64,000 nucleotides of DNA from Myxococcales bacterium (GCA_035635635.1 DASQAS010000108.1:42843-106842); one strand, 5' to 3'. Positions 6,416 through 54,498 are shown, counted from the first letter of the stretch. The notes: generated by a model not told the origin, from the letters alone. Program-made: numbers and translations.

Positions 6416-6459
6416 CGACCTCGAGTTCCTCTAGCGAGAGGAAGCGGTCGATCAGGAGC

Positions 6460-7092: not shown

Positions 7093-7318
7093 GCTGGCAG
7101 CGTACGGGAGGGGTCTGACATTTCCTGGCGGGTGCGCTCGAGGCTGGGAGAGTTCGGTCGCGGCTTGTCCGCCGATTCATCTTGATTGAGCGGACATCGC
7201 CGCCCCGAGACCGCCGGGTGCATCGGAGAGATCGCTGGCGCCGCAGTCCCCAGGGGGCAGCCAACGCCAACTCCCGTCGCGCAGTGCAACCCGCCCGCGG
7301 CGGCGGTAGCCTCGGCTC

Positions 7319-7972
7319 ATGCGCCTCCTCGCCTTCGCCGCCTCCCTCCGCTCCGCATCGCTGAACCACAAGCTCGTGTCGCTCGCGGCTCGTCTCGCCG
7401 CCCAGGAAGGGGCAGACGTCGACCTTGCCCGCTTCCGCGAATTCGAGATGCCGCTCTACGACGGCGATGAGGATGCCGCGCACGGCTTGCCGGACGGCGC
7501 GCGAAAGCTGAAGGAGCGCATCGAGCGCGCCGCCGGGCTGATGATCGCCGTCCCCGAGTACAACTACTCCATCCCCGGCCCGCTCAAGAACGCCATCGAC
7601 TGGGTCTCCCGCGCGCGCCCGATGCCCTGGCGGGGCCGCGCCGTGTATCTAATGTCAACCGCGCCTTCGGCGGTGGGCGGCGTCCGCGGGCTCTGGCAGA
7701 CCCGCATCCCGCTCGAGGGCTGCGGCGCGATCGTCTTCCCCGACATGTTCGCGCTGCCCCATGGCAACACCGCCTTCGACGAGCGCGGGTTCCTCCGCGA
7801 CCACGCGCCCTTCGAGCGGCTGCTCAAGGAAGTGCGCGGATTCGTCCGCTTCGCGGAGGCCGTCGAGCCGCTCTGCTGCGCGCCGCCTCCGGCGGCCGAC
7901 GCGAAGCAGCGGGCGGAGCAGATTGCGGCGGCGCTGGAGGAGGAGAGCGAGCTCCAGCCCGCCGCTCCGTAG
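7319..7972 (+). CDS. NAD(P)H-dependent FMN reductase family oxidoreductase
   Basis: 'MRLLAFAASLRSASLNHKL...' and 'VPEYNYSIPGPLKNAIDW' are hallmarks of the FMN_red family. 217 aa. Confidence 0.8.
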   Translation: MRLLAFAASLRSASLNHKLVSLAARLAAQEGADVDLARFREFEMPLYDGDEDAAHGLPDGARKLKERIERAAGLMIAVPEYNYSIPGPLKNAIDWVSRARPMPWRGRAVYLMSTAPSAVGGVRGLWQTRIPLEGCGAIVFPDMFALPHGNTAFDERGFLRDHAPFERLLKEVRGFVRFAEAVEPLCCAPPPAADAKQRAEQIAAALEEESELQPAAP

Positions 7973-37160: not shown

Positions 37161-37936
37161 CATTTCCCTGCGCACACTCCGGCGTCCGTCGAGGTGATCA
37201 CGCACCTGCACTGCATCCCCGCGTCCGCGGGCCCGCTGTCCGGCGTCTCGCAGACCGCGGCGGAGGCGCAATCCGCGGCGCCCGCGCAGGAGTCGCCGGT
37301 GATTCCGAGCTGGCAGGTTCCATAGGTCACAGCGCTGGATGCGTGTGCGCAGAGGGCGCCGACCTTGCAGTCGGAGGCGACTCCGCACTCGCTGAGGAGG
37401 CAGACGGCGCCCTTGCCCTGGACGATGTGGCCCCCGTCGGGCTGGCGGTTGCAGGCGAGGCTGATCCCGCCCGCGGCGCAGCCGCCGTCCTGTCCGCAGG
37501 AAGGCAGCCCGATGCAGCCGGCTGTCCCGACCAGGTCGTAGCAGACGGCGTCGGGCGCACACTTGTCGTTTGCAACGCCCTTGGTGCAGAGCTCGACACC
37601 GCCGTCGCCGATGCCCTCCTGCGAGATGCAGCGGCCCTGGTAGCAGGTCTGCGCTTCCGGGCAGTCGCTGGTGAAGTTGCAGCCGGCTGACGCTGCCGGG
37701 GAGCAGACGTCGTCCGGGAAGGTCGGGCCGGGGCAGTACATGCCGGCTGGACAGGCCGCGCCGCCCGTGCAGGTGGGGACGCAGTAGGAGTTCACGCAGC
37801 GGGTCCCGGAAGGGCAGGTGTGGCTGCCGGCGGTGCAGAACTGGCCGCCGTCAGGACGCTGCACCGGCGTGGTGGTGTCCTCTCCGCTGCAGGAGATGGC
37901 GGCGAACACCAGCGCGATCAGTGTGCTTCTGCCCAT
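37160..37936 (-). CDS. Cysteine-rich repeat lipoprotein
   Basis: ATG at 37936 follows GGAGAAGGAGAGAC. Lipobox 'LVFAAISC'. About 30 Cys lie in repeated C-x-C-rich modules ('CPSGTRCVNSYCVPTC', 'CPEAQTCYQGRC'), as in myxobacterial disulfide-repeat proteins. Confidence 0.75.
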   Translation of the reverse strand: MGRSTLIALVFAAISCSGEDTTTPVQRPDGGQFCTAGSHTCPSGTRCVNSYCVPTCTGGAACPAGMYCPGPTFPDDVCSPAASAGCNFTSDCPEAQTCYQGRCISQEGIGDGGVELCTKGVANDKCAPDAVCYDLVGTAGCIGLPSCGQDGGCAAGGISLACNRQPDGGHIVQGKGAVCLLSECGVASDCKVGALCAHASSAVTYGTCQLGITGDSCAGAADCASAAVCETPDSGPADAGMQCRCVITSTDAGVCAGK

Positions 37937-40605
37937 GTCTCTCCTTCTCCGAGCTCGACCACCAGGGGAACGGCAAGATCCGCTGCGGCGCCCATCTGCG
38001 CCTTGACGATCGGCTTGACCTCCGCGACCTCCGCGGGGGGTGCTTCGAGCACCAACTCGTCGTGGACCTGCAGCAACATGCGCGCCTGGTATTTCCCGCG
38101 CAGGGCGGCGTCGACTTTCAGCATGGCGCGCTTGACCAGGTCGGCGGCGGTGCCCTGGATGGGCGTATTGACCGCCGTCCGCTCCGCGGCGCTGCGCGCG
38201 GCCGGGTTCTTGCTGTTGATGTCGGGCAGGTAGCGGCGGCGGCCGAAGAGCGTCTTCACCATCCCGGTGCTGCGCGCGGTGGCGATGGTGTCGTCCAGCC
38301 ACTGCTTCACCTTCGCGTAGCGCACGAAGTACCGCTCGATGATGTTCGCCGCCTCGCTCTTCTCCAGCCCGAGCCGGTGCGCGAGGCCGAAGGCGGACAG
38401 CCCGTAGGCGATGCCGTAGTTGATCATCTTGGCGATGTCGCGCTGCTGCCGGGTCACCTGGGCGGGCGGCACGCCGAACGTCTCGCCGGCGATGCGGGCG
38501 TGCAGGTCCTCGCCGGACTCGAAGCTCGCGCGCAGGACGGGGTCGCCGGAGATGTGCGCCAGGACCCGCAGCTCGATCTGCGAGTAGTCGGCGCTCAGCA
38601 GCTTCCAGCCCGGCTCGGGAATGAAGGCCTCGCGGATCTTCGCCCCCACCGCGGTGCGGATGGGGATGTTCTGCAGGTTCGGGTTGACGCTGGAGAGGCG
38701 GCCGGTGGCGGCGACGGCCTGGTCGAAGGTGGTGTGCAGGCGGCCGTCGCGGCCGATCACTTCGGGGAGCGCGTCCAGGTACGTGTTCTTCAGCTTGGTG
38801 AGCTGCCGGTGCTCCAGCACCTTCGCGGGCAGCGGGTGCTGCTGGGCCAGCTCCTCGAGGACCTCCTGGTCGGTGGAGGGCCCGGTCTTGCCCCGCTTGA
38901 GGACCGGCAGGTTCAGCTTCTTGTAGAGGACCTCGGCGAGCTGCTGCGTGGACCCGGGCAAGAACTCGCCGCCCGCGAGCTGGAAGATCTCCAGGAGCAG
39001 GGCGTCGATCTGCCGGCCCAGCTCATCCCCGAGATGCCGCAAGCGTGGCACGTCGATGCGGATCCCCGTCACCTCCAGGCTGGCGAGCACCTCGATCAAG
39101 GGCTTTTCGATGGTCGTATAGAGCTCCAGCAGCTCGGGATCCTGGCGCAGGTCGTCCCCGAGCGCCTCCGTCAAGCGTCGGGCGCCCTCGACCAGGGCGG
39201 CAGCGGCGGCGCCGGTCTCGTCCACGGGAAGCTCGGGCAGGGGCGTGGCCTTCTTTCCCTTCCCGGTACGCTCGCAGAGCTCCTTCAGGATCGGGAGCTC
39301 GCAGGAGATCCGCTCGCGCGCGGTCTGGACTAGCGAGTGGTCGCGGCCGGTGGGATCGATCAGGTAGGAGGCGATGCGCGAGTCGATCCCGAGCCCGGCG
39401 AGGTTGACGCCGGCGCGGCGCCAGGCGTCGAGGTCGCGCTTGAGGTCGTGGCCGTCCTTGACGACGGCGGGATCCTCGAGGAGGGGCTTGAGGATGGGAA
39501 TGGCCTTTTGCGCGTTGAGCTCGGCCGGTGCGAACAGGGCGCCTGCGCCCCCCTGCGGGCGGTGTCCGAGCGGCACGTAGACGGATTCGTCCGGCAGCGA
39601 GATGGCGAGCCCGAGCAGGTCGTCGCGGAGCGGTTCGTCCTCGCTGGTGAGCGTCAGGATCGCGATCCGCTTCGCCGCGCGCGCCTTGTCCACCAGGCGC
39701 TGCACGTCCTCGGCGCTGGTGGCGATCGACCGGGCGCCGGTCGGCGGGGTCGGAGGCGGGCGGGGCAGGTCGGTGACCAGGCGGACGAACTCGAGCTCGG
39801 TGAAGAGCTTGCGGGCGCGAGGCTCGTCGATGCTCTTGCGCTCGAGGTCCTCGAGCTGGACCGGCAGCGGGAGGTCGTCGTAGAGCGCGATCAGCTTGCG
39901 CCCGCGCCGGACGTTGTCCAGGCTGGCGAGCAGGTTCTCGCGCAGCTTCGGCTTCTTCACATTCGCGGCGTTCGCCAGCACGTTCTCCAGACTGCCATAG
40001 TCCTTGAGCAGGCCGGCGGCCGTCTTCTCGCCCACGCCGGGGACGCCGGGGATGTTGTCGATCTTGTCCCCGGTGAGCGCCAGCAGGTCGGGGAGAGACG
40101 CTGGAGGCACGCCCCACTTCTCCTCGACCTCCGCCGGGCCGTACCACTTCTCGTACATCGAGTCGTAGCAGCGGATGCCGTTGACCACCAGCTGCATCAG
40201 GTCCTTGTCGCCCGAGACGATCACCACTTCCCATCCCTGCGCCCGCGCGCGCCGCGCCAGCGTGGCGATCACGTCGTCCGCCTCATAGCCGGTGAAGCCG
40301 ATGGCCGGGACCCGCATGACCTCGAGCACCTTGCGCACCAGCGGGAACTGCGGCGTCAGGTCCTCGGGCGGAGCGCCCCGCGTCGCCTTGTAGGCGTCGT
40401 AGATCTCGCTGCGCCTGGCCTTGGCCTCCTCGTCGAAGGCGACGGCCAGGTGGGTGGGATTCCCCTCGCGGATGGCGCGCAGGAGCATGGTGGTGAAGCC
40501 GTAGACGGCGTTGGTGGGGACGCCCTGGCGCGTGGAGAGGTGGGGCAGTGCGTGGTAGGCGCGGAAGATGGTGTGGGAACCGTCCACCAGCCAGAGCGAG
40601 GGCAT
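37918..40605 (-). CDS. polA: DNA polymerase I
   Basis: 895 aa with a 5'-nuclease N-terminus ('LVDGSHTIFRAYHA'), 'DYSQIELRVLAH' and 'QVHDELVLE'. Confidence 0.95.
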   Translation of the reverse strand: MPSLWLVDGSHTIFRAYHALPHLSTRQGVPTNAVYGFTTMLLRAIREGNPTHLAVAFDEEAKARRSEIYDAYKATRGAPPEDLTPQFPLVRKVLEVMRVPAIGFTGYEADDVIATLARRARAQGWEVVIVSGDKDLMQLVVNGIRCYDSMYEKWYGPAEVEEKWGVPPASLPDLLALTGDKIDNIPGVPGVGEKTAAGLLKDYGSLENVLANAANVKKPKLRENLLASLDNVRRGRKLIALYDDLPLPVQLEDLERKSIDEPRARKLFTELEFVRLVTDLPRPPPTPPTGARSIATSAEDVQRLVDKARAAKRIAILTLTSEDEPLRDDLLGLAISLPDESVYVPLGHRPQGGAGALFAPAELNAQKAIPILKPLLEDPAVVKDGHDLKRDLDAWRRAGVNLAGLGIDSRIASYLIDPTGRDHSLVQTARERISCELPILKELCERTGKGKKATPLPELPVDETGAAAAALVEGARRLTEALGDDLRQDPELLELYTTIEKPLIEVLASLEVTGIRIDVPRLRHLGDELGRQIDALLLEIFQLAGGEFLPGSTQQLAEVLYKKLNLPVLKRGKTGPSTDQEVLEELAQQHPLPAKVLEHRQLTKLKNTYLDALPEVIGRDGRLHTTFDQAVAATGRLSSVNPNLQNIPIRTAVGAKIREAFIPEPGWKLLSADYSQIELRVLAHISGDPVLRASFESGEDLHARIAGETFGVPPAQVTRQQRDIAKMINYGIAYGLSAFGLAHRLGLEKSEAANIIERYFVRYAKVKQWLDDTIATARSTGMVKTLFGRRRYLPDINSKNPAARSAAERTAVNTPIQGTAADLVKRAMLKVDAALRGKYQARMLLQVHDELVLEAPPAEVAEVKPIVKAQMGAAADLAVPLVVELGEGETWAEAH

Positions 40606-40641
40606 TGGGGGCGGGTTTTAACACCGGAACGGCTACGCGGC

Positions 40642-42438
40642 TCACTCTTCCTGGAAGACTTCCATGTCGACCGGGATGCCCCGCCGCTGCAGGTCGTCGT
40701 AGAAGGAGGGCACCAGTCCGGTGGCCATGAAGCGGCCCACCACGCCCCCCTGCTCGTCGAACCCTTCCTGCTTGAACTGGAAGATGTCCTGCAGGGTGAT
40801 GACGTCGCCCTCCATGTCGGCGACCTCGCTGACGGCGATCACCTTCCGCGACCCGTCCGCGAATCGCGCCTGCTGCAAGACCAGATTCACCGCGCTGGCG
40901 ATCTGCTCCCGGATGGCCCGGATCGGAAGCTCCATCCCGCTCATCAGCACCATGGTCTCCAGGCGGGCGAGCGCATCGCGCGGTGAGTTCGCGTGCAGGG
41001 TGGTGAGCGACCCGTCGTGGCCGGTGTTCATGGCCTGGAGCATGTCGAGCGCCTCGCCGCCGCGGCATTCGCCCACCACGATGCGGTCGGGGCGCATCCG
41101 CAGCGCGTTCCGCACCAGGTCGCGGATGGTGATCTGCCCCTTGCCTTCGATGTTCGCCGGCCGGGCCTCGAGCTGGATCCAGTGCTCCTGGGGAAGCTGC
41201 AGCTCTGCGGCGTCCTCGATGGTGACGATCCGCTCCTGCTCGGGGATGTAGCCGGAGAGGACGTTGAGCAACGTGGTCTTGCCGGAGCCGGTCCCGCCGG
41301 AGATCACGATGTTGCGTCGCACCTTCACGCAGGTCTCGAGGAAGTGCGCCATCCGCGGCGTGAGCGTTCCGAATCCGATCAGGCTGTCGGCGCCCAGCAG
41401 CTCCCGCTTGAACTTGCGGATGGTGATGCAGGGCCCCTTGAGGGCGAGCGGGTGGATGATCGCGTTCATCCGGCTGCCGTCGGGCAGCCGCGCGTCGACC
41501 AGCGGGGAGGACTCGTCGATGTGCCGCCCGAGCGGCGCCACGATGCGCTCGATCACCCCCATCACCGCCTGGGCCGAGCTGAAGGTCCTCTCTCCCTTCT
41601 CCAGCCGCCCCTCGCGCTCCACGTAGACCTGCGAGGGGCCGTTGACCATGATCTCGGTGACCGTGTCGTCGGCGAGGTACGTCTCGAGCGGCCCGAGGCC
41701 CAGCGCCTCGTTGAGCACGTCCTCGATCAGTGCCTCGCGATCGAGGTGCGCATCGAGCTCTCCCGTCTGGTCCATCCGCGTGACGATCTGCCGGAGGGTC
41801 GTCTCGGCCTTGTTCCACAGCTCCTCGGAGCCCAGGGCGTCGAGATCCAGCCGGCGCAGGTCGAGGGCCTCGATCAGCCGGAGGTGCACCAGCTCCACGG
41901 CGTCGCCGTGGTCGGCCATCGCGGCCGCGGGGGCGGGCGCCTTGGCCTGCGGCCTGGAGATCGGCGCGGCCGCCTCTGGCGGCGGCGAAGGCGGGGGAGG
42001 GGGCTGCAACGGTTGCGGAGGCGGGGTGGACCGCTTCGACGGCGCATCCCGCCGGGTGGCCTCGCCCCCGAGGTAGTGGGGCACGGCGGGGGTCATGGTC
42101 GGCAGATCGGCGAGCTCGTCTCCGTCGGAGGGGACCGGCTCCAGATCGGGCGGCTCGACGTTGAGGATGAAGTCGCCGATGTAGACCTTGTCGGCCGGCG
42201 AGATCAGCTGCGGCCCCGCGAGCTTGCGCCCGTTCACGTAGGTGCCGTTGGTGCTCTTCAGGTCGAGGACGATGATCTTCCCGTCCTTCACGACGATCTT
42301 GGTGTGCTTCTTGGAGATGTTCCCCTTGGGCAGGCAGATGTCGTTCTCGTCGACCCGGCCGATGGTGATCTCTTCCGACTCGAAGTCGAGCCGCTGGGTG
42401 GCGCCACCCTTTTCGGTCAGGATGATGCTGAAAGACAT
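40642..42438 (-). CDS. FHA-domain-fused CpaF/TadA-type secretion ATPase
   Basis: N-terminal FHA ('[47 protein letters not shown]'). A Pro-rich linker. Then the CpaF-type ATPase with Walker A '[12 protein letters not shown]' and '[32 protein letters not shown]'. Confidence 0.9.
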
Positions 42439-42521
42439 GGAATTGATCCCCCTGCTTTCCGCAGTATCGCATACGTCGGGGCTGGGATTGAGGGCCTACG
42501 CCGGGCTTCCCAATCCCCCGC

Positions 42522-43979
42522 TCAATCGAACCAGGAAAATCCGACCGAGCCCTCCGCCCCCTCGTGAATCTTCCTCGCCTCATCCAGCAGCTGCCGCGCC
42601 CCCTCGTTCGCCGGCCAGATCACCCGCGGCGTGATGTAGATCGCCAGCTCCGTCTTGTGCTCCATGAAGCTGCGGCTCTTGAACAGCTCGCCCAGGATCG
42701 GGATGTGCCCGAGCAGCGGGACCTTGGACACTTCCTTCTCCTCGCTGGAGTTGTAGAGCCCGCTCAGGACGATGGTCTCCCCGTCCCTGACGATCACGGT
42801 GGTCTTCACCTCCCTCACCCGGAAGCCGGGCACGTCGAATCCGTTCGCCCGCACCGAGGCGCTGCGGTCCACGTCGCTGACCTCCGCGTGGATCGCGGTG
42901 GAGATGTTTCCGCTCTGGTCCGCCGAGGGAGTCACGTGCAGCAGGATCCCGAACTTCTTGAACTCCACCCCGAACTGGTTCTGGGTGGCGATCAGCACCG
43001 GCACCTCGCCGCCGGCCTGGAACTCCGCCTTCTCGCCGCTGGCGCAGACCAGCCGCGGCTGGCTCAGGATGCGGACGGCGCCGTGATCGAAGCGGGCCGT
43101 CGCCGAAAAGTCGCTCGCGACGCTGGCCTTGACCGTCACGCTCCCGCTCCTCTGCGTCTGACCACTGTCCAGACCGCGCAGCGGCTGCACGACGTCGACG
43201 CTCGCCGTCAGGCCGTCGCCAGTGGAAACGAACGACGCCGGAGGCTTGATCCCGACCTGCTTGCTGCTGCCGGAGCTGGCCTCCACGAAGTCCACCTCCA
43301 CCAGCACCATCCGGTGTGCCCCCACCGTCACCAGGCTCTCCGGCTTCTCGGCGCTCCCGCGGGTGAGGAGCTCCAGCTTGCGCAGCTCCTCCTTCGATTC
43401 CACCCAGCCCTCGAGGACCAGCGTGCCGCCCAGCACGCTGGCCGTGACGCCGCGGAGGCCGTTGCGCTGCAGCGCCTTGTTCAGCGCCTCGGCCGCCAGC
43501 CGCCTCGAGTTTCCGCTCGGGCGCACGAAGGAGCGGACCGAAGGGTAGAGCTTCAGGATCTGCGCGACGCGCTCCGCGTCGTCCGCGTTGAGCGTCTCGC
43601 CCTCGAGGTAGACGCGATCCCCCACCACCCGCACCTGCACGCCTTCGCGGTCTCCGAGCAGCGCTCGGACCTCGCTCACCAGCTCCTTCGGGTCCTGCTT
43701 TCGGACCACCACCGTGTAGCTCAGCCGCGCTCCGCCGCTGCGCCACACCAGCAGGGAGGTCCGCCCTTCGCCCACGCCGGTGAGCAAGAGCTCGCCGGAG
43801 GTGCCCACCTGCTTGACGTCGGCGACCTCGGGCTCGCCGATGGCGACGCGCGCCACGTCTCCGGCCTGGAGGATCTTCTGCTGGCCCACGCCGAGCGCGA
43901 TCACGCCGCCGTCGGGCTGGCTCGGCGCCGGCGCGGCAACCAGCGTGAGCGCGAAGGCCAGGGATCGCATCCGCAGCAT
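42522..43979 (-). CDS. CpaC/RcpA-type secretin
   Basis: N-terminal pilus-secretin region 'LGVGQQKILQAGDVARVAIGEPEVADVKQV...LLLTGVGEGRTSLLVW'. C-terminal secretin motif 'VPLLGHIPILGELFKS'. Confidence 0.85.
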   Translation of the reverse strand: MLRMRSLAFALTLVAAPAPSQPDGGVIALGVGQQKILQAGDVARVAIGEPEVADVKQVGTSGELLLTGVGEGRTSLLVWRSGGARLSYTVVVRKQDPKELVSEVRALLGDREGVQVRVVGDRVYLEGETLNADDAERVAQILKLYPSVRSFVRPSGNSRRLAAEALNKALQRNGLRGVTASVLGGTLVLEGWVESKEELRKLELLTRGSAEKPESLVTVGAHRMVLVEVDFVEASSGSSKQVGIKPPASFVSTGDGLTASVDVVQPLRGLDSGQTQRSGSVTVKASVASDFSATARFDHGAVRILSQPRLVCASGEKAEFQAGGEVPVLIATQNQFGVEFKKFGILLHVTPSADQSGNISTAIHAEVSDVDRSASVRANGFDVPGFRVREVKTTVIVRDGETIVLSGLYNSSEEKEVSKVPLLGHIPILGELFKSRSFMEHKTELAIYITPRVIWPANEGARQLLDEARKIHEGAEGSVGFSWFD

Positions 43980-44019
43980 GCGCGGCAGCGTCGCAGGGTC
44001 CAGGCGAGCCGACCATCGG

Positions 44020-44508
44020 TCAGAAGAGCGCTGTTCCGGAGCCGAAAGCCCAGATAACGCCGGCCGCGATGGCCAGGGCGTAGGGGACGGCCCGGGGCCG
44101 GGGGCGGCCGCGAACCCGGGCAGCCGCGATCAAGAGCAAGGCCTGGATCCCGCCCGCGACCGCCACGTCGGCCAGGACGGTCAGGGCAAACGGCCAGCCC
44201 GCCGCCGCGCCCGCGGTCAAGCCCGCAAGCGCCATCAGCTTCACGTCGCCGGCGCCCATCCAGCCGCGCCAGGTCGCGACCGCCAGAGGCACCGCGCAAA
44301 CCAGCGCGCCCAGGACGGCCTCGAGCAGCAGCGAGACGCCTCCCAGCCACGCCACGCAGCCCACCGACAAAAGCAGCGCCGGGTAGGTCACCGCGTTGAG
44401 GATCCGCCTCTCGCGCAGGTCGGTGACGACGCTGACGGCGAGAGCGACGCCGAGCGCCAGCAGCGCGATCCTCGCCTGGAACGGCGCGGCTGCCCACGCC
44501 TCGATCAA
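44020..44508 (-). CDS. A24-family prepilin peptidase (CpaA/TadV-like)
   Basis: 162 aa, polytopic. The two Asp contexts are 'VVTDLRERRILN' and 'GAGDVKLMALAG'. Confidence 0.8.
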   Translation of the reverse strand: MIEAWAAAPFQARIALLALGVALAVSVVTDLRERRILNAVTYPALLLSVGCVAWLGGVSLLLEAVLGALVCAVPLAVATWRGWMGAGDVKLMALAGLTAGAAAGWPFALTVLADVAVAGGIQALLLIAAARVRGRPRPRAVPYALAIAAGVIWAFGSGTALF

Positions 44509-44509
44509 A

Positions 44510-45229
44510 TCAACGGAACGCGCAGCTCAGCTTCTCCGAGCTGATGTAGTACTCGTCCCCGTCGTGGATCTGGCGGCGCGTGATGCGGCGCGCGTCGAAC
44601 CAGGTGCCGTTGGACGACCCGAGATCCTCGATGAACCACGCCTGTCCCTCGCGGACGATGGCGGCGTGCTCGCGGCTGACCTTTCCGGAGTTGATCACCA
44701 GGTCGCAGTGCTTTCCCCGGCCGATCACGAACCGGTCCTTGACCACCCGCTCCAACTCAACGCCCTCGGGATTGAGCAGCACAAGCTCCGGCGTGGGCCC
44801 CGTGGCGACCCTCGGCAGATCGGAGTTGGTCGCCTCTTCCAGCGCGTCGTTTGCGACCACGGGAGGCGGGGTGGGCACCGCCTGGGGAGGGGCGCGCCGC
44901 GCGATTCCGCCCGCCGCCGTGAGGTGCGCCGTCTGCCCTACGCGCTCCTCGGAACGAGGAATGGCGCCCTGATCGGCGACCAGGGTCGGCGCGGCGGGGG
45001 GCGCGACGCGCAGGCGGCCCGAGTCGGTGAGCGCGGCTTTCGGGACCACGCCCAGGGTCATGAGATCAGAGGGGATGAGAAAGCCGTTGAGGCGGGCGAA
45101 CGTGTACAGCGCCTGGTTGACGAGCGCGTCGCGCTCGGTTCCCATCTCGGCCGCCATCGACGAGATGGCGTCCCAGATGTGGTCGGCAATCAGCACCGTC
45201 CGCGGGTTCTTCGCGCGCTCATCGCTCAT
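44510..45229 (-). CDS. FHA-domain protein
   Basis: C-terminal FHA 'FVIGRGKHCDLVINSGKVSREHAAIVREGQAWFIEDLGSSNGTWFD'. The N-terminal about 60 aa is unassigned. Confidence 0.8.
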   Translation of the reverse strand: MSDERAKNPRTVLIADHIWDAISSMAAEMGTERDALVNQALYTFARLNGFLIPSDLMTLGVVPKAALTDSGRLRVAPPAAPTLVADQGAIPRSEERVGQTAHLTAAGGIARRAPPQAVPTPPPVVANDALEEATNSDLPRVATGPTPELVLLNPEGVELERVVKDRFVIGRGKHCDLVINSGKVSREHAAIVREGQAWFIEDLGSSNGTWFDARRITRRQIHDGDEYYISSEKLSCAFR

Positions 45230-45276
45230 GTTGCACCCGACCGCAGCTTAACGGACCCGGGCGCCCCGGAGAAGGC

Positions 45277-47574
45277 CTATCGGAAGAACTGCAGGCCCAG
45301 GACGTTGGAGAAGAGGAGCAGCGGGTCGGCCTGCACCACCTCGTTGTTGCCGGTGATCGAGGTGAAGATCAGCATCTGCCGGCGCGGTGAGCTGTAGGGA
45401 TGGACGGCGGTCGCGAACCCGGCGAGGAAGGTCTGGTCGGAATAGGTGAGCGGCAACTGGCCGCTGCCGATCGCCCAGGTGAATCCCGACTTGGGCGCGG
45501 TTGGCTCGGGCCCCGTGATGTTGAAGGTAAAGGAGACGTCGTTGGCGGCGCTGGGCAGCGGTTGGCAGGGACTCGTGGCGCCTGTGCAGTCGGCGGCGTA
45601 TAGGTTGTGCGGGTAGTCGAAGCGCTGCTCGTGCACGGTGAAGGTTCGATCGGGCAGCATGCGTCCGCGGACCGTATAGACCTGGGACGCCGTCACGCTC
45701 GGAGGATTTCCCGCGAAGATCACCCACGGTTGCGTGCCGGCCGCCCGGAATTCCGCCACGGTGCCGAACTCGTTGCAGCCGTCCGGATGGAATCCGCGCA
45801 CGGCGTTCGTATCGGGCAATTCCGCGAGCTCGACGGTCGTCGGGTCCGGAATGGCCGTGATCGGAAGCTCGAAGCGGTAGGGGGCTTCGTTCAGCAGGAT
45901 GTTGCAGGGTGGCGTGCTCGCCGGAGTCAGGTCGTACGCTCCGAGCGAGACCACGTCGCCGACCCCCAGTGCGACGGCCGGATCCTGCTGCCACGGTTGC
46001 AGGCTGGCCGGCAGGCTCAGGACCAACGTCCCGGGGTTGGTGGTTTTGGGGCGAATCGTCCCGCCGCGGCGCTCCAGACCCGGAATGGTCGAGTGCCAGA
46101 CGGCCCGCCAGGAAGCCTTGCGCGTCAGTCCCGACGTCAGGCCCGACTGGAAGAACGTCGGCGTGTCGATGTTCAGCGCCGGGATGATCGGCGTCACCGG
46201 GCTGTAGGTCGGCGGCTGGTCGACGGTCGGGACGATCCCCAGCTCGCCGGGCACCGAGTAGAGGTTCTCGTTCACGAACCTGCGCGCCGGGAGCTCGATG
46301 AACGCCGTCGATCCATCGGTCGCGGTCACCGCGGCGATCAGCAAGAACGAATGGAGCGGGGCGTTGGTGGGCTGCGAGACGAAGAGCGGAGTGCAGGGCG
46401 TGGCCGTGCAGGTGGTGAGATCCGGAGGCGTCGGTGAGGCCCGCGGCTTGACCGCCCTCAGGAATGCTCCCTCTCGCAGCAAGCCGGGCACCGGCAGCCC
46501 CAAGGGTTGCATCGGCTCCTGGTTCGTCTCCATCAGTCCAAACGGCGGAATGGGAACGAGGCCCTTCGTCCCGCCCCCAAGCCCCGTCCATGCGAACAGC
46601 ACGCCACCGGAGTCCAACTCCCGGCCCGGGACCACCGTGGTCGAAGGCTCGACCACCATGAGGAGGAGCTCGCCCGGAACATGCGTGACGAGGGGGCCAG
46701 GGCCGGCGGCGTCGCCCTCGTACCAGCGCGGGCTGAGAGCCAGCGATCGCACGCTGCGGCCGCCCGCGCTGATGCGGTTGGTGGTGTCGCAAGCTCCCCC
46801 GATGGTGGTTGGTTTCGGGATGACGACGACGCCGTCGCCCGCGCCGTCCGCCACGTAGACCTGCGCGTCGCTTCCCGGCACCAGGGCCAGCTGGATGGGT
46901 GTGACCGAACCCAGCGTGCAGCTCGCGATCGGAGCCGTCGGGACGATCGGCCGGCCCGTGGCGGGATCCAGGATGATGCTGAAGACTTGGAGGTCCGTCT
47001 CGGTGGCGACGAACGCTGTAACGCCAGGAACGCCCGCCGGCGTCGCGACTTCCAGATCCAGGTCGGGGTCGATCTTGTTCGCTGCCACGACATCCACGGT
47101 CCGGGCGCCCGCGTCGATCTGATCGACCCGCGGCGCCGCGGTCGGATTCGTCACGGACTGTACCAGGCTGAGGCCGTCCACCATCGCGACGGAGTTGGCG
47201 GCGCCGGCCACCAGCGCTACGCCCGACGCGCCGCCGTCCGGCTGGCCCAGCCGCACGCCGGCCACCCGCACCGGCCGGTCGCCGGTCTCGATCGCCGCCG
47301 CGAAGACGCGGACGGGAGCGGGGATGAACTGTCCGTTGATGGCGCTGGGGCAGGTGTCCGCCGGATCGACGCCACCGTCCAGGAGCAGCGCGCGGTTGCA
47401 GAGCTGCAGGGCGCGCACGCTGTCGCGGCCGGAGTTGGCGATGAACACCAGGTCGCGGTCCCCTGCTCCCGTTGCTCCGATGCCGGTCGGAGAGCTGAAC
47501 TCGCCGATGGCGGTGTTGGGGTTGGTGGTGTTGCAGGCTGCCAGAAGAACCAGCAGCGCGAGCCCGAGCCTCAT
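45277..47574 (-). CDS. Large lipoprotein, probable beta-propeller repeats (hypothetical)
   Basis: ATG at 47574. Lipobox 'LLVLLAACNTT'. Repeated strand-like segments ('DLVFIANSGRDSVRAL', 'VALVAGAANSVAMVD', 'AQVYVADGAGDGVVVI'). The track ORF extension to 48963 is a shadow frame. Confidence 0.7.
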   Translation of the reverse strand: MRLGLALLVLLAACNTTNPNTAIGEFSSPTGIGATGAGDRDLVFIANSGRDSVRALQLCNRALLLDGGVDPADTCPSAINGQFIPAPVRVFAAAIETGDRPVRVAGVRLGQPDGGASGVALVAGAANSVAMVDGLSLVQSVTNPTAAPRVDQIDAGARTVDVVAANKIDPDLDLEVATPAGVPGVTAFVATETDLQVFSIILDPATGRPIVPTAPIASCTLGSVTPIQLALVPGSDAQVYVADGAGDGVVVIPKPTTIGGACDTTNRISAGGRSVRSLALSPRWYEGDAAGPGPLVTHVPGELLLMVVEPSTTVVPGRELDSGGVLFAWTGLGGGTKGLVPIPPFGLMETNQEPMQPLGLPVPGLLREGAFLRAVKPRASPTPPDLTTCTATPCTPLFVSQPTNAPLHSFLLIAAVTATDGSTAFIELPARRFVNENLYSVPGELGIVPTVDQPPTYSPVTPIIPALNIDTPTFFQSGLTSGLTRKASWRAVWHSTIPGLERRGGTIRPKTTNPGTLVLSLPASLQPWQQDPAVALGVGDVVSLGAYDLTPASTPPCNILLNEAPYRFELPITAIPDPTTVELAELPDTNAVRGFHPDGCNEFGTVAEFRAAGTQPWVIFAGNPPSVTASQVYTVRGRMLPDRTFTVHEQRFDYPHNLYAADCTGATSPCQPLPSAANDVSFTFNITGPEPTAPKSGFTWAIGSGQLPLTYSDQTFLAGFATAVHPYSSPRRQMLIFTSITGNNEVVQADPLLLFSNVLGLQFFR

Positions 47575-49004
47575 GGGCAGGTCCCCGCCAGCGCGCGGAG
47601 CTTCGCCTGCGAAGGACTGAGGAGTGGGACCTCGATCAGCGCGACCCGGCAGGCGCCGAAAACGGTGGTGGCGAGGCACGCCGAATTGCTGAATAGCGCG
47701 GCGGCGGGGCAGTCGATCTGCTTGACGAGGAATGGCGAGTCCCCCAACCGACCGACCTCCGCCACCACCTCGTCGGTGGTGGTGTCCACGATGACCACGC
47801 TGTTCTGCTTCTCGGCCACCACCGCGATCAGGTCGGGCGCGCCGGGGCGCGGGATGCGCGTCATGTCGGCGGGCGAGATGGGCAGCGGGATGACCTTGCG
47901 CACGCGCGGGAGGACGGAGGGACTGGTGGGAAGCTCGATCCGGACCAGCGTGTCGGGCAGCCGCATCGTCGCCCACAGCGTCTGGGGAGCCTTGGTCGCA
48001 GGGTCCGGGTCGCCGAGCATGAGCTGCACCGTGTAGATGCTGAGCACGTCGGAGCGGAGATCGATCAGCGTCGGATCGGTCGCATCCCTGGCGTCGACGC
48101 CGAGGATGCGCAGGTAGTTGGTGGAGATGCCCCCGCAGAGCGTGCTGCCGGGCTCTCCCGCGCCGAGCGCCGAGGAGCGCACGTAGCAGCCGGCGAGATA
48201 GAGCTGGCGCCGGACCCCGTCGAACACCATCGGGCCCACGCCGGTGCCGCCGCCCACGAATTGCGAGCCTGCCCGCATCGAGTAGAGCAGCGGAGAAGGC
48301 GCCGACGCGGCGAGCGCAAGCATGTCGACGACCGCCACATGAGTGCTGGAGGTGATCACGCCCGAGCTGATCGAATCGATGTGCGGAACGATCGAGGAGA
48401 TGAAGAACACGTCCTTCGGTGTGCTCTCGCCCGGCAGGAACGTGTTGCCGGCCACGACGGTGAACGGCCCGTCGACGCCCGCGTCCGGGAGGTCCAGGGT
48501 GCGGACGCCGTTGCGGCAGTCCTGGCTGCTCACGCCGCCCGAGTTCTCCGTGCAATGCAGCTTGCCGTTCGCGCCGATCGCGACCTCGTTCAGGCTCCCG
48601 TTGTCGCGCGAAGCGCTGTAGACGATGCCGGCGTCGGCGTTGAGGACGAGCGGGCCCGCGTAGCTGCCGATCATCGCGGCGCTGGTATCTCCGGGGATCG
48701 GCTGGGTGCAGTCCAAGGACGCGTCGGGGACGTCGCAATCGAGCGGGCCTGCGTCGGGCAGGAAGCGGCTGTCCAGATAGCTGCGCGTGAGGTTGACGAC
48801 CGTGCCGGTCTCGAACAAGCGGTCGAAGTTGCCGTTCGCGATCAAGAGACCTGCGTCCGGCCCCGGAGCTTGCACCAGCCCGGTGGGGAAGAAGAGGCGG
48901 GCGGGCTGCGGCCCTTCGGGACCGAACGGCGGCGGCAGGAACTGAGGCGGGGTCGTATTGCACGCCGCCAGGAGCGCCGCGATCGCCATCCCGCTCTTCT
49001 TCAT
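47571..49004 (-). CDS. Lipoprotein, paralogous N-terminus to the downstream lipoprotein (hypothetical)
   Basis: ATG at 49004. Lipobox 'IAALLAACNTT'. 'GLLIANGNFDRLFETGTVVNL'. Its stop overlaps the next start (ATGA at 47571-47574). Confidence 0.7.
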   Translation of the reverse strand: MKKSGMAIAALLAACNTTPPQFLPPPFGPEGPQPARLFFPTGLVQAPGPDAGLLIANGNFDRLFETGTVVNLTRSYLDSRFLPDAGPLDCDVPDASLDCTQPIPGDTSAAMIGSYAGPLVLNADAGIVYSASRDNGSLNEVAIGANGKLHCTENSGGVSSQDCRNGVRTLDLPDAGVDGPFTVVAGNTFLPGESTPKDVFFISSIVPHIDSISSGVITSSTHVAVVDMLALAASAPSPLLYSMRAGSQFVGGGTGVGPMVFDGVRRQLYLAGCYVRSSALGAGEPGSTLCGGISTNYLRILGVDARDATDPTLIDLRSDVLSIYTVQLMLGDPDPATKAPQTLWATMRLPDTLVRIELPTSPSVLPRVRKVIPLPISPADMTRIPRPGAPDLIAVVAEKQNSVVIVDTTTDEVVAEVGRLGDSPFLVKQIDCPAAALFSNSACLATTVFGACRVALIEVPLLSPSQAKLRALAGTCP

Positions 49005-49039: not shown

Positions 49040-51127
49040 TCAAGCCGTTTTCTCGACCTGCAATCTGGAAAAATCCGCCAGCGGCGCGAAGAGCTCGTGC
49101 AAGGCGCGCAAGAGCGCCAGCCGGTTGTCGCGGAGGGCCGCGTCCGGGTCCATCACCATGACCTCGTCGAAGAAGCGATCGACCACAGGCCGCAGCTCGG
49201 CCAGCGTGGCATAGGCGGCGAGGTAGTCCTCCTTCTCGGTCAGCGCGGTGGAGACCCGCTCGCGGCTCTGCTCGAGCGCGGCCGCCAGCGCCTTCTCGGC
49301 AGGGGTCTTGCACAGGCTGGCGTGGAAGCCGACCGGCTTGATCCCCTTCTGCTGCGCCTGGAGGAGGATGTTCCCGATGCGCTTGAAGGCCGCCGCGGTC
49401 GCCTCGAATTGAGCGCGGCTCTTCTCCCGCACGGTCTGCAGCGCGTTGAGCCGCTTCTCCAGCGCGATCAGGTCGCGCGCGCCGGTGTGGAGCACCGCCT
49501 GGATCGAGTCGGGCTGGCCTTTCTCGCGGAGCAGCACCTCCAGCCGGCCCAGCAAGAATTGCCAGACGCGCTCGCGCACGGCGGGGTCGTCCTTGCGGTG
49601 GAGCTTCTGCGCCGCCTGCAGGGCCTCCTCCACGTCGAACCGGTACCCGCGGGCCAGCGTCACGCGCAAGAGCCCGAGGGCGGCGCGGCGCAGCCCGAAT
49701 GGATCGGCGGTGCCGGTGGGCTCCTTGCCCAGGCCGAAGAGGCCGGTGAGGAGGTCGAGCCGGTCGGCCATGCCGAGCAGGGCGCCGATGTCGCCCGACG
49801 GCAGCCGGTCCTCCGCGCCGCGCGGCAGGTAGTGCTCGAAGATGGCGTCGGCGACGGGGGGAGCGACGCCTTCCTGCAGCGCGTAGACGCGACCCATGGT
49901 TCCCTGCAGCTCGGGGAACTCGCCCACCATCCCGGTGGTGAGGTCCGCCTTGCACAGCTCCGCGGCGTCGGCGAGCTGCCGCGGCTCGCCGCGGCCGGTG
50001 GCGCCGTGCAGCCAGAGCGCCAGCTCGCGCAGGCGCTGCACGCGCTCAAGCTCGCTCCCCAGTCCCTGCAGGAACGTGCGGCGGCCCAGCTTCTCCAGCC
50101 TGGACCGCAGCGGCACCTTGCGGTCCTCGTCGAAGAAGAACTTCCCGTCGGAGAGCCGCGCCCGCAGCACCCGCTCGTATCCCTTGCGGCTCACCCCCGG
50201 ATCGCGCACCTTGGTGTTCGAGACTGCGACGAAGGCCGGGAGCAACTCGCCCTTGTCGGTCTGGACGGCGAAGTACTTCTGGTGCCCGCGCATCTCCGAG
50301 ACCAGCACCTCCGGAGGGAGCTGCAAGAACTCCTTCTCGAAATAGCCGGCGACGGCGAAGGGCTCCTCGACCAGACCCGTGACGGTCTCCAGCAGCTCCG
50401 GGTCGGGCCTCGGGACGCCGCCCGCCTCGCGCGCCGCGCGCGCGACCTCCTCCGAGATGCGCCTGCTGCGCTCCGCCCAGTCGGCCAGCACGTGCAGCTT
50501 GCGCAAGGTCGGGAGGTATTCCCGGGCGGCCGGGACGGGGATCTCTTGTGGAGCCGCGAACCGGTGGCCCCTGGTCTTCGGCGCGCTGGTCACGTCTGCG
50601 AACTTCACCGAGAGCGGCTTGCCGTCGAGCGTCGCCGCGATCCAGTGGACGGGCCGGGCGAAAGCGTCGGTCTGAAGCCAGTCCCAGCGCATCGACTTCC
50701 TGAAGGGGATGCCGCGGACGATCTGCTCGAGGATGGGCGGCAGCGCTTCCAGTGCGGTCTGCCCCCGCAGGTTCTGCTCGACCACCACCCGGTCGCCCTC
50801 GACCTTCAGCGCGTCGGGCGAGACGCCGGCCTTGCGCGCGAAGCCCTCCGCGGCCTTGGTCCACTTGCCGTCCTGCAAGGCCTGCTTCGCCGGCGGACCC
50901 GACAGCTTGCGCCGCAGGTCGGGCGCCCTCTCGGCGATGGCGGTGACCACCAGCGTGAGCCGGCGCGGGGTGGCGTAGGTGGCGATGTTCGCGCGCTGTC
51001 CTTCACCCTCGCCGTTCAGGCGCGCGTCGTCCAGCGCCTTGTCCATCTGCGCCGCCATCCATTCCACGGCGGGCTGCTGGAAGCTCGCGGGCAGCTCCTC
51101 GGTGCCGATCTCGAACAGCAGATCCAT
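49040..51127 (-). CDS. glyS: Glycine--tRNA ligase beta subunit
   Basis: 'MDLLFEIGTEELPASF' start at 51127, with a single nt between the glyQ stop and this ATG. Length and C-terminal anticodon-binding region are typical. Confidence 0.95.
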   Translation of the reverse strand: MDLLFEIGTEELPASFQQPAVEWMAAQMDKALDDARLNGEGEGQRANIATYATPRRLTLVVTAIAERAPDLRRKLSGPPAKQALQDGKWTKAAEGFARKAGVSPDALKVEGDRVVVEQNLRGQTALEALPPILEQIVRGIPFRKSMRWDWLQTDAFARPVHWIAATLDGKPLSVKFADVTSAPKTRGHRFAAPQEIPVPAAREYLPTLRKLHVLADWAERSRRISEEVARAAREAGGVPRPDPELLETVTGLVEEPFAVAGYFEKEFLQLPPEVLVSEMRGHQKYFAVQTDKGELLPAFVAVSNTKVRDPGVSRKGYERVLRARLSDGKFFFDEDRKVPLRSRLEKLGRRTFLQGLGSELERVQRLRELALWLHGATGRGEPRQLADAAELCKADLTTGMVGEFPELQGTMGRVYALQEGVAPPVADAIFEHYLPRGAEDRLPSGDIGALLGMADRLDLLTGLFGLGKEPTGTADPFGLRRAALGLLRVTLARGYRFDVEEALQAAQKLHRKDDPAVRERVWQFLLGRLEVLLREKGQPDSIQAVLHTGARDLIALEKRLNALQTVREKSRAQFEATAAAFKRIGNILLQAQQKGIKPVGFHASLCKTPAEKALAAALEQSRERVSTALTEKEDYLAAYATLAELRPVVDRFFDEVMVMDPDAALRDNRLALLRALHELFAPLADFSRLQVEKTA

Positions 51128-51128
51128 C

Positions 51129-52085
<957 letters not shown>

Positions 52086-52244
52086 CGGGCGCCCGAACGT
52101 AGACGCAGTGCGGCGGTTGCGCAAGCGCGAGCTTGCAGGAGTGGGAGGTTCCGGTTCTACTCGGAGCGCAACGCGACCATCGGGTCGACGCGCGTGGCTT
52201 TGAGCGCTGGCAGGAGCGTGGCCAGCGCGGCCGCCCCGACTCCC

Positions 52245-52772
52245 TTACTTCTTCTTCGTCACCGGCGGCGCCAGGAACGACACGTTGTCCGCCCCCGACC
52301 CGGCGGGCTCCGCCGGCTGCGGTTCTCCCCGCAGGTTGTCCAGCAACGACTTGTGCGACTCGAGCAGCGACTGCAGCTGCTGCATGAACGAGCTCCGCGC
52401 GCGCTTCAGCTCCTCGATCTCCCCGACCAGCGCCATCCGCCGCGCCTGCGCGTTCGCGATGATCTTCTCTCCCTGCAGCTCCGCGTCGGAGAGGATGATG
52501 TCCGCCTCCTTGCGCGCGTTGGCCCGCATCTCCTCGGCCACCTTCTGCGTGGTGGTCAGCGTTTGTTGCAAGAGTTGCTCCCGATCCTTGAAATCGTTGA
52601 TCCGCGCCTCGCGTCGCCGGAGCTCCTCGTCCTGCCGGTTGATCTTGCGGACCAATTCCTCCAGCTGCGCGGCGACCATGTCGAGGTAGGAGCGCACCTC
52701 GCGGTCGTCCAAGCCTCCGAGCGTGACCTTGCGGAAGGTCTTCTGCTGCAGGTCGAGGGGTGTGAGCCTCAT
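52245..52772 (-). CDS. DivIVA-domain protein
   Basis: 'MRLTPLDLQQKTFRKVTLGGLDDREVRSYLDMVAAQLEEL' is the canonical DivIVA N-terminus, followed by coiled coil. Confidence 0.85.
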   Translation of the reverse strand: MRLTPLDLQQKTFRKVTLGGLDDREVRSYLDMVAAQLEELVRKINRQDEELRRREARINDFKDREQLLQQTLTTTQKVAEEMRANARKEADIILSDAELQGEKIIANAQARRMALVGEIEELKRARSSFMQQLQSLLESHKSLLDNLRGEPQPAEPAGSGADNVSFLAPPVTKKK

Positions 52773-53884
52773 GGGTCGGAGGGTACAACCTCGGTCAAGG
52801 TTCCGGACCGCTCGGGATCACGGCCGTCCGGCCCTGGGCTCACCGCAGCGAAGACGCCGCCGCGGCGTTCCGCCTTCACCCGGTACATCGACTCGTCGGC
52901 GCGGCGGATCAGGTTGTCGGGATCGCGGGCGTCGTCGGGGAACGCGGCCACGCCCAGGCTGGCGGTCAGCCGCACCGGGCCGAACGGCTTGTCGGCCAGG
53001 AAGGGCTGACGCGCGATCTCGCCGCCGATCCGGCGCGCGGCGGCCACCGCCTGGTCCTTGCTGGTCTCCGGCATCAGGATCACGAACTCGTCGCCGCCGT
53101 AGCGGACCGGCACGTCGGTCGAGCGCAGCGTCTTGAGCAGCAGCCGGCCGATCTCGTGGAGCACCTGCGATCCCGCCTGGTGGCCGTGCGTGTCGTTCAC
53201 CTTCTTGAAGTGGTCGAGGTCGAAGAAGATCACCGACACCGGGTGCCCGAAGCGCGTGGCGCGGACCACCTCCTGCTCCAGCGAGCGCTTCAAATGCCGC
53301 GAGTTGAAGAGCCCCGTGTGATCGTCGAGGACGGTCAGCTCCTGCACCTTGTGGAAGTTGCGCGCGTTCTCGATGGCGATGGCGCTGAACTCGGCCACCG
53401 TCCCGAGGATCCTGAGATCCTCCTCCTGGAACGCGCCGTCGTTGGGGCCGTTCACCAGCTCGATCACGCCGAGGGTGAGGTCCTTGAAGGTCAACGGAAC
53501 GCAGAGGATCGACTTGGTGTGGAAGCGCGAAGCCTTGTCGAAGCGGCTGGCGAAGCGCGGGTCGGCGTGCACGTTCTTCACCAGGAGGGGCTGGTTGTTC
53601 TGCGAGACCCAGCCGGCGATCCCTTCGCCCGGCTGCAGCCGCATGCCCAGCAGCCGATCCGAGCCGGCGCCCACCGCCGCGTGGAAGTAGAGCTCTCCGG
53701 TGGCCTGATCCTTGAGGAGCAGCGACCAGTTGCTGGGCTTGAGCAGCTCGCTGACCTTGGCGAGGATGACGTGCATCACCTCGCCGATGTCCAAAGACGA
53801 GGTCAGGGCCTTCCCGATCTCGTTGAGGACGGCGAGCTCGTCGACGGTGCGCTGCAGCTCCCGGAGGAGATCCTTCCCCCTCAT
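52769..53884 (-). CDS. GAF-GGDEF diguanylate cyclase
   Basis: ATG at 53884. GAF ('GEGIAGWVSQNNQPLLVKNV'). GGDEF with 'RYGGDEF' and an RxxD I-site ('RSTD'). Its stop overlaps the DivIVA start (ATGA). Confidence 0.85.
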   Translation of the reverse strand: MRGKDLLRELQRTVDELAVLNEIGKALTSSLDIGEVMHVILAKVSELLKPSNWSLLLKDQATGELYFHAAVGAGSDRLLGMRLQPGEGIAGWVSQNNQPLLVKNVHADPRFASRFDKASRFHTKSILCVPLTFKDLTLGVIELVNGPNDGAFQEEDLRILGTVAEFSAIAIENARNFHKVQELTVLDDHTGLFNSRHLKRSLEQEVVRATRFGHPVSVIFFDLDHFKKVNDTHGHQAGSQVLHEIGRLLLKTLRSTDVPVRYGGDEFVILMPETSKDQAVAAARRIGGEIARQPFLADKPFGPVRLTASLGVAAFPDDARDPDNLIRRADESMYRVKAERRGGVFAAVSPGPDGRDPERSGTLTEVVPSDP

Positions 53885-53940
53885 TTCGCAGAGTGTACGT
53901 GAGGTTGTCGCGACGCGCCAAATCCTGTAGAGGCGGCGCG

Positions 53941-54498
53941 ATGAAGCTTCTTCTCTGCTCCGCGTCGCCGCGCCGGCGCGAATTTCTCGAGCGGATCGGG
54001 GTGCGTTTTGCTGCTGCCCCCGCCCACATCGACGAGGGTCGCAGGCCCGGGGAACGTCCACTCGACTACGTGCGCAGGATGGCCCGCGAGAAGGCCGAGG
54101 CGTGTGGGCGCAGCGGCCACGTGGCCCTCGCGGCGGACACGGTGGTGGTGGTGGGAGATGAGGTCCTGGGCAAGCCGCGCGATCGCGAGGATGCCGCCCG
54201 GATGCTGCGGACGTTGTCCGGCATCGAGCATCGCGTGATCACGGCGGTGTGCGTGCCGCCGGAGATCCAGGCCGTGGAGACGACCGTGAAGTTCGCCCCG
54301 CTCTCCGAAGCGCAAATCCGCTGGCTCTCGGATTCCGGCGACGGGGACGACAAGGCGGGCGCATACGCCGTGCAGGGCCTCGCCGGCGCGTTCGTGGAGC
54401 GCATCGACGGAAGCTTCACCAACGTGGTGGGGCTCCCGATGGTCGAGACGCTGCAGATGCTCGCCCGGGCGGGCGTGGAGCTGCCGTGGGCGACGTAG
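53941..54498 (+). CDS. maf: Maf-family nucleoside-triphosphate pyrophosphatase
   Basis: 'LLLCSASPRRREFL', 'VLGKPRD' and 'DKAGAYAVQG'. ATG at 53941. Confidence 0.9.
   Translation: MKLLLCSASPRRREFLERIGVRFAAAPAHIDEGRRPGERPLDYVRRMAREKAEACGRSGHVALAADTVVVVGDEVLGKPRDREDAARMLRTLSGIEHRVITAVCVPPEIQAVETTVKFAPLSEAQIRWLSDSGDGDDKAGAYAVQGLAGAFVERIDGSFTNVVGLPMVETLQMLARAGVELPWAT

Follow-up and report, generated by a model that had tools for sequence, protein, structure and literature searches.

The window analysed here is a stretch of 64,000 nucleotides (nt) from a Myxococcales bacterium (GCA_035635635.1, DASQAS010000108.1:42843-106842), and its positions 40642-49004 carry a block of six intact genes, all on the minus strand and all in one direction. 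It is likely (probability of about 0.8) that this block is the orthologue, in an uncultured soil bacterium of the Myxococcota, of kil cluster I of Myxococcus xanthus, because its gene content and gene order, its glyQ-glyS and polA flanks and the placement of its ATPase in the KilF clade all correspond to that cluster. Kil is the Tad-like type IV filament machine that M. xanthus uses for contact-dependent killing of prey (Seef et al., eLife 2021, PMC8460266). The host is recorded from soil metagenomes only; the DNA of the window is also present in soil metagenomes and lies within a 136.5-kb ENA contig, k141_2628989 of ERZ27253175.

Genes were called in this DNA, which has a G+C content of about 70%, by listing open reading frames (ORFs) and inspecting start sites. 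The block and its flanks are as follows; lip1 and lip2 denote the two lipoprotein genes, and lengths are in amino acids (aa).

47571-49004, minus strand: lip1, lipoprotein, 477 aa, lipobox LLAAC
45277-47574, minus strand: lip2, lipoprotein, 765 aa, lipobox LLAAC
44510-45229, minus strand: stand-alone FHA protein, 239 aa, Pfam FHA E=8.7e-19
44020-44508, minus strand: A24 prepilin peptidase of the TadV/CpaA type, kilA-like, 162 aa, Peptidase_A24 E=4.1e-12
42522-43979, minus strand: secretin, kilC-like, 485 aa, T2SS-T3SS_pil_N, BON and Secretin, E=1.8e-43
40642-42438, minus strand: FHA-fused CpaF/TadA ATPase, kilF-like, 598 aa, FHA E=1.4e-14 and T2SSE E=1e-66
49040-51142, minus strand: glyS, upstream flank, Pfam tRNA_synt_2f E=3e-182
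51129-52124, minus strand: glyQ, upstream flank, assigned from tblastn synteny
37918-40605, minus strand: polA, downstream flank, DNA_pol_A E=1.9e-151

Gene Content, Order, and Flanks

In M. xanthus, kil cluster I extends from MXAN_3102 to MXAN_3108 (Seef et al., PMC8460266; Herrou et al., Nat Commun 2025, PMC12075869). MXAN_3102 and MXAN_3103 are two predicted outer-membrane lipoproteins with the InterPro labels cytochrome cd1 nitrite-reductase-like (a propeller fold) and YWTD propeller; MXAN_3104 is an FHA protein and is followed by KilA, the prepilin peptidase (PMC8460266). KilC is a short secretin with BON, pil_N, and secretin domains and without N0, KilF is a fusion of FHA and ATPase, and KilD, an FHA and TPR protein, is needed for prey killing (PMC8460266). 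The genes for the platform, CpaB, and the pilins are found in cluster II and at other loci (PMC8460266). A 2026 preprint gives the order as glyQ-glyS-two unknowns-FHA-kilA-kilC-kilF-kilD-polA and predicts that polA belongs to one operon with kilA, kilC, kilF, and kilD (bioRxiv 10.64898/2026.08.20.745974).

Domain by domain and in identical order, the six window proteins correspond to the published entries for MXAN_3102-3107, and the flanks of the block (glyQ-glyS and polA) are identical to those of cluster I. An earlier note on this DNA had proposed a Kil-like partial Tad locus with an FHA-fused ATPase, which is now backed by gene content and order, by the flanks, and by an ATPase of the KilF clade. 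Its description of a six-gene, co-directional block on the minus strand was borne out by the ORF listing and by the Pfam and NCBIfam domains, and its distances, 35 nt from the end of glyS to lip1 and 36 nt from the ATPase to the start of polA, agree exactly with the coordinates. The same note had called the glyQS-polA context unusual: the context is present, but the adjective does not hold, as this is the native setting of kil cluster I and is conserved across Myxococcota.

Within the block, genes are separated by gaps of 1-83 nt; lip1 and lip2 overlap by 4 nt (ATGA), and 47 nt separate lip2 from the FHA gene. A scan for promoters and terminators showed nothing above the shuffled level: it returned no promoter, and its 9 terminator-like sites compare with 6.3 after shuffling. 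A search for RNA runs from this organism gave none.

The Motor ATPase, Secretin, and Peptidase

Pfam places an FHA domain at residues 24-88 and a T2SSE domain at residues 246-523 of the ATPase, whose Walker A, Asp box, Walker B, and His box are all intact. Its best NCBIfam model is TIGR03819 (TadA family), with 340.6 bits, below the model cut-off of 373.15. For a comparison beyond domain models, the protein was added to the 25 taxa of a published supermatrix, over the first 240 columns of the KilF part (235 window residues). Across these 235 aa, the KilF proteins of M. xanthus, Stigmatella, and Cystobacter share 67% identity with it, and the remaining 22 CpaF-family members of the sample share 43-59%. 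A neighbour-joining tree built from the same 235 aa unites it with the three Myxococcales KilF proteins as one clade in 200/200 bootstraps. The resemblance of the ATPase to Kil goes beyond generic domains; the earlier note had named the absence of such specific similarity as a ground for doubt. When the window ATPase was used as a search query, the best 120 matches were all relatives from metagenome-assembled genomes (MAGs).

The secretin has a signal peptide, and Pfam gives T2SS-T3SS_pil_N, BON, and Secretin as its only domains; no Secretin_N/N0 match was found in its 485 aa, as judged from Pfam and not from structure. Its full-length alignment with the secretin of L017, a contig whose ATPase is close to KilF of M. 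xanthus, shows 50% identity, and the peptidases of the two loci are 32% identical. In the window peptidase, both catalytic Asp positions are present, namely Asp30 and the Asp88 of the GAGD motif. More generally, the profile searches that had been called for, run with Pfam and NCBIfam, upheld the four domain identities previously assigned and left the lipoproteins without a curated family.

Conservation of the Locus in Myxococcota

A scan of species-representative genomes based on lip2 returned 16 loci (L001-L016), all from uncultured Myxococcales/Deltaproteobacteria MAGs and none from a cultured Myxococcus. Where the contigs are long enough, these loci have the order glyQ-glyS-lip1-lip2-FHA-peptidase-secretin-ATPase-polA, with departures in L004, L008, L009, L011, L013, and L014. 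A JGI contig carrying P0071, a distant lip2 homologue, has the same order as the window. Partial proteins with 77-84% identity to M. xanthus KilF led to three further contigs: L017 (peptidase-secretin-ATPase), L018 (ATPase-KilD-like-two small genes-polA), and L019 (ATPase-KilD-like).

With the L017 secretin as query, a metagenome scan gave 34 loci. The long loci of this distant clade (about 15) read glyQ-glyS-lip1-like-lipoprotein-FHA-peptidase-secretin-ATPase-KilD-like-polA, and their glyS and polA are only about 45-48% identical to those of the window; since the order is nevertheless the same, the arrangement is kept across a deep divergence of the Myxococcota. In all, the glyQS-polA synteny recurs in about 30 further Myxococcota metagenome loci, and where the flanking sequence is long enough, polA nearly always stands downstream of the kil genes, L019 being the exception.

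Some of the departures from this order are additions or omissions of a single gene. In L004 (14996-15493), an additional secreted protein of 165 aa with Cys_rich_FGFR repeats is encoded between secretin and ATPase, and about 0.8 kb of additional sequence occupies the same place in L013. L011 has no stand-alone FHA gene, lip2 being followed directly by the peptidase gene (2512-2554); in addition, an opposite-strand gene resembling periplasmic substrate-binding proteins, unrelated to kilD, lies between its ATPase and polA (6324-7694).

The Stand-Alone FHA Protein

In this protein, the FHA domain occupies residues 168-226 (E=8.7e-19). Among 11 aligned orthologues, the N-terminal and FHA domains are near-invariant and the linker that joins them is variable; the FHA signature residues are invariant across the orthologues. 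The N-terminal domain, of about 55 aa, is encoded at 45065-45229 on the minus strand (MSDERAKNPRTVLIADHIWDA...ALYTFARLNGF). Its profile has a weak match to the CopG ribbon-helix-helix repressor (E=0.014), so that a ribbon-helix-helix fold is possible, as a lead and not as a finding. The same N-terminus is shared with homologues of the distant clade, for example in L025 and L033, and full-length homologues occupy the same position of the locus in distant Myxococcota. The protein is the positional counterpart of MXAN_3104.

The Two Lipoproteins

Both lipoproteins have a lipobox with a cleavage site, MKKSGMAIAALLAAC|NTT in lip1 and MRLGLALLVLLAAC|NTT in lip2. Because Asn follows the lipid-modified Cys at position +2 in both, lip1 and lip2 are probably located in the outer membrane. 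They are the positional counterparts of MXAN_3102 and MXAN_3103. Neither belongs to a curated family: lip1 matches no Pfam family, and lip2 no Pfam or NCBIfam family.

Signals of a beta-propeller are found in both proteins. In lip1, there is a weak YVTN beta-propeller repeat (E=0.002), and a profile of 15 homologues matches one NHL propeller blade of TRIM2/3 (E=1.7e-5), which suggests that lip1 is probably a beta-propeller protein; a structure model made from the single sequence was too poor for use (predicted local distance difference test, pLDDT, 31.6). The AlphaFold2 model of lip2 is all-beta (pLDDT 82.7; predicted template modelling score, pTM, 0.81), and its Foldseek matches in the PDB are the WD40/beta-propeller proteins DDB1, Gemin5, and Ski8 (TMt ~0.5). 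As modelled, lip2 consists of an N-terminal beta-propeller and C-terminal beta-rich domains. Comparison of the lip2 profile with PDB sequences gave chance antibody matches only. The propeller signals of lip1 and lip2 agree with the propeller-type InterPro labels of MXAN_3102 and MXAN_3103.

In distant Myxococcota loci, the gene directly after glyS encodes a lip1 homologue (hmmsearch E 1e-14 to 1e-28), and the lipoproteins in second position in the distant clade are only remotely lip2-like and very diverged. The lip2 family is small, with 149 representatives among 1.84 billion proteins; those with a name all come from Myxococcales/Deltaproteobacteria MAGs, and among the 30 that were looked up there was no cultured organism, the best label being Anaeromyxobacteraceae. 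A common origin of the two lipoproteins as paralogues was considered and not established: the profile comparison (probability 91%) aligns the signal peptide and the first blade only, over 45 columns.

A 389-kb ENA contig encodes P0063, a protein of 1211 aa that joins lip1 (46% identity over 466 aa) to lip2 in a single ORF and retains the internal lip2 lipobox. P0063 was not accepted as a functional fusion: it may be a true fusion, but it may equally stem from a frameshift or an assembly error where the two genes overlap (ATGA).

The ratio of non-synonymous to synonymous substitution rates (dN/dS), computed against the close relatives L056 and L057, rises from 0.07 in polA and 0.12 in glyS through 0.16 in kilF and 0.29 in the FHA gene to 0.43 in lip1 and 0.52 in lip2. 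Selection is purifying in every gene tested, and it is the lipoproteins that are the most relaxed or evolve fastest.

These data bear on a different reading of the lipoproteins, in which they are not parts of the machine at all but form the tail end of the glyQ-glyS operon and have some envelope function unrelated to Kil, in a neighbourhood that is frozen in Myxococcota. The spacing fits this idea (35 nt between glyS and lip1 and the 4-nt overlap of lip1 and lip2, yet 47 nt before the FHA gene), and glyQ and glyS are possibly co-transcribed with lip1 and lip2. Similarly, an operon prediction based on co-expression in M. xanthus puts glyQ, glyS, and the two unknowns in one unit, apart from kilA-kilC-kilF-kilD-polA (bioRxiv 10.64898/2026.08.20.745974). 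Synteny extends to glyQS and polA as much as to the kil genes, so that co-occurrence cannot separate the two ideas. However, every locus examined has lip1 and lip2 after glyS and before the FHA/kil genes, and an inserted gene in L014 parts lip1 from glyS but leaves the lipoprotein genes with the kil side. A family as tiny as that of lip2, with all its named members in Myxococcales/Deltaproteobacteria MAGs, also speaks against the operon-tail idea, as do the dN/dS values of lip1 and lip2, which at 0.43-0.52 are far above that of glyS and unlike those of housekeeping operon partners. In addition, MXAN_3102 and MXAN_3103 are counted in cluster I by Seef et al. (PMC8460266). That the two genes are no part of the machine is a real but rather doubtful possibility.

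Canonical Tad Components in the Window

Pfam scans covered about 50 window ORFs, roughly those of at least 90 aa. Among them, no T2SSF (TadB/C), CpaB (SAF/RcpC), TadZ/CpaE (ParA-like), or protein kinase domain was found, which upholds the earlier statement that the TadB/TadC platform and TadZ/CpaE are not in the locus. No match to the Flp family of pilins was found in these ORFs either, in a scan that did not search for small pilin genes; within the block itself, the gaps of 1-83 nt leave too little space for a Flp-type pilin gene. By Pfam, the other ORFs of the window are housekeeping and signalling genes only.

The ATPase, secretin, and peptidase match generic Tad/CpaF, secretin, and A24 models, as would be expected if the block were a fragment of an ordinary adhesive Tad/Flp pilus for surface attachment, resembling Kil only through shared Tad ancestry. 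This is very improbable: the ATPase falls specifically in the KilF clade, whereas CpaF of Caulobacter and Agrobacterium is only 43-46% identical to it; the Kil-specific set is complete, with an FHA domain fused to the ATPase, an additional FHA protein, two lipoproteins, no TadZ, and a machine presumably spread over separate loci; and the flanks are those of M. xanthus cluster I.

The Absence of kilD

Several observations weigh against the identification with kil cluster I. First, kilD is not at the locus: polA begins 36 nt after the ATPase, with only positions 40606-40641 in between. Second, no platform, CpaB, or kinase gene was found in the 64-kb window or in the 10 kb past its left end. Third, the counterparts of MXAN_3102, MXAN_3103, and MXAN_3104 were matched by position and InterPro labels, and not by direct sequence comparison.

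The KilD-like genes of relatives encode two FHA domains and weak TPR repeats. No such protein is encoded in the 64-kb window, where tblastn with two KilD-like proteins gave single FHA-domain matches only. A KilD-like gene stands between ATPase and polA in L008, L009, L018, and all long loci of the distant clade (in the range L023-L052); in L019, kilD follows the ATPase, but polA is not downstream. In contrast, kilD is absent and polA directly follows the ATPase in the window and in L002, L004-L007, L012, L013, and L057. Since kilD is present in deeper relatives but not in the window and its closest relatives, the pattern indicates a putative lineage-specific event, that is, a derived loss or relocation in the subclade of the window. 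Either kilD is encoded elsewhere in these genomes, or the lineage of the window works without it.

It is barely credible that the block is instead a decaying remnant, non-functional after the loss of kilD and heading to pseudogenisation: although kilD is needed for killing in M. xanthus and is missing in the window and in the eight other loci just named, all six window ORFs are intact, orthologues of them occur throughout the MAG loci without kilD, the catalytic and phosphopeptide-binding motifs are conserved, and dN/dS is well below 1 in every gene tested, where decay would give values of about 1 and frameshifts.

Neighboring Genes

Directly upstream of glyQ lie a DivIVA gene (52245-52772, minus strand) and a gene for a GAF-GGDEF diguanylate cyclase (52769-54238, minus strand). 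DivIVA is syntenic in many close relatives, and in the distant clade it is found past polA instead, in the opposite orientation. A second GGDEF gene of the window encodes a HAMP-GAF-GGDEF protein (13437-14996, minus strand).

On the other side of the block, a gene for a Cys-rich lipoprotein of 258 aa (37163-37936, minus strand; MGRSTLIALVFAAISC...) shares 19 nt with the end of polA. It has no Pfam family and is kept downstream of polA in L004, L006, L007, L008, and L012.

Farther away, an IS200/Y1-transposase-like ORF (6460-7176, minus strand; Y1_Tnp E=9e-7) lies amid glycogen-metabolism genes and was also called in the near-identical JGI contig L021. About 6-9 kb past the left end of the window, L020 (873-4388) encodes an AMIN-domain protein of 351 aa and a protein of 816 aa without a family. 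The AMIN domain is also known from PilQ-type secretins; the AMIN protein of L020 has no established tie to the kil genes.

Proposed Mechanism and Significance

If the block is kil cluster I, it would supply the outer-membrane and energizing half of the machine: a KilC-like secretin without N0, a KilA-like peptidase, and a hexameric, KilF-like FHA motor ATPase. By analogy with M. xanthus, the KilG/KilH platform, KilB (the CpaB homologue), and the pilins would be encoded elsewhere in the genome. Contact with prey would lead to a Ser/Thr phosphorylation signal, which the ATPase and the stand-alone protein would sense through their FHA domains, and this signal may recruit or activate the ATPase at the contact site. 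A pilus would then be polymerized through the secretin, and the prey cell would be lysed. The two lipoproteins may be envelope accessories of the secretin or components that face the contact. Control by phospho-Thr through the FHA modules, which the earlier note had also suggested, is likewise inferred in the literature, and here it is proposed by analogy; the Pfam scans of the window ORFs found no Ser/Thr kinase gene near the block.

A bolder version, which we consider unlikely, is that a Kil-type machine works here without KilD, which M. xanthus requires at the site of contact. Signalling would then be left to the ATPase, by its FHA domain, and to the small FHA protein alone, the latter maybe tying it to DNA binding through its possible ribbon-helix-helix domain, and the fast-evolving lip1 and lip2 would be true prey-facing parts instead of passengers of the glyQS operon.

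Contact-dependent killing by M. xanthus centres on Kil, and what triggers this machine is still an open question. The present data indicate that cluster I and its odd glyQS/polA embedding are ancient and widespread in uncultured soil Myxococcota, that kilD is dispensable at the locus in one subclade, and that two uncharacterized lipoproteins are the fastest-evolving members. The natural variants without kilD, the lipoproteins, and the N-terminus of the FHA protein are thus leads for distinguishing the prey-sensing parts of the machine from its core.

Comparison with Known Systems

With the canonical Tad/Flp (Cpa) systems of Caulobacter crescentus and Aggregatibacter actinomycetemcomitans, the window shares a CpaF/TadA ATPase, a CpaC/RcpA secretin with pil_N, and a CpaA/TadV A24 peptidase. 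In contrast to these systems, it has no adjacent TadB/TadC, CpaB/RcpC, TadZ/CpaE, TadD/TadG or, among the scanned ORFs, Flp pilin; its ATPase has an N-terminal FHA domain; and an additional FHA protein and two propeller lipoproteins, the latter as predicted, accompany the machine genes. Over the core block, the ATPase is 43-46% identical to alphaproteobacterial CpaF.

A predator-associated Tad system is also found in Bdellovibrio bacteriovorus, where it is genetically dispersed and has FHA and TPR regulatory genes adjacent to it (bioRxiv 10.64898/2026.07.08.737194). Its ATPase is 49-53% identical to that of the window, the two form a joint clade in 0/200 bootstraps, and the genomic context is different.

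The likeness to kil cluster I of M. xanthus is much closer. Both loci have, in order, two lipoproteins, an FHA protein, a KilA peptidase, a short KilC secretin, and an FHA-fused KilF ATPase; in both, glyQ-glyS lies upstream, polA lies downstream, and the ATPase is of the KilF clade; and neither cluster contains TadZ, platform, or pilin genes. Identity to relatives of the M. xanthus proteins is only about 67% for the window ATPase and about 50% for the secretin. The FHA protein of the window is short (239 aa), whereas its counterpart in L017 exceeds 438 aa and has a repeat-rich region. The one real difference is kilD, which encodes a protein with two FHA domains and TPR repeats: it lies directly downstream of kilF in cluster I and is not at the window locus. 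The locus does not reveal a new kind of system; it is a further member of the known kil cluster I system.

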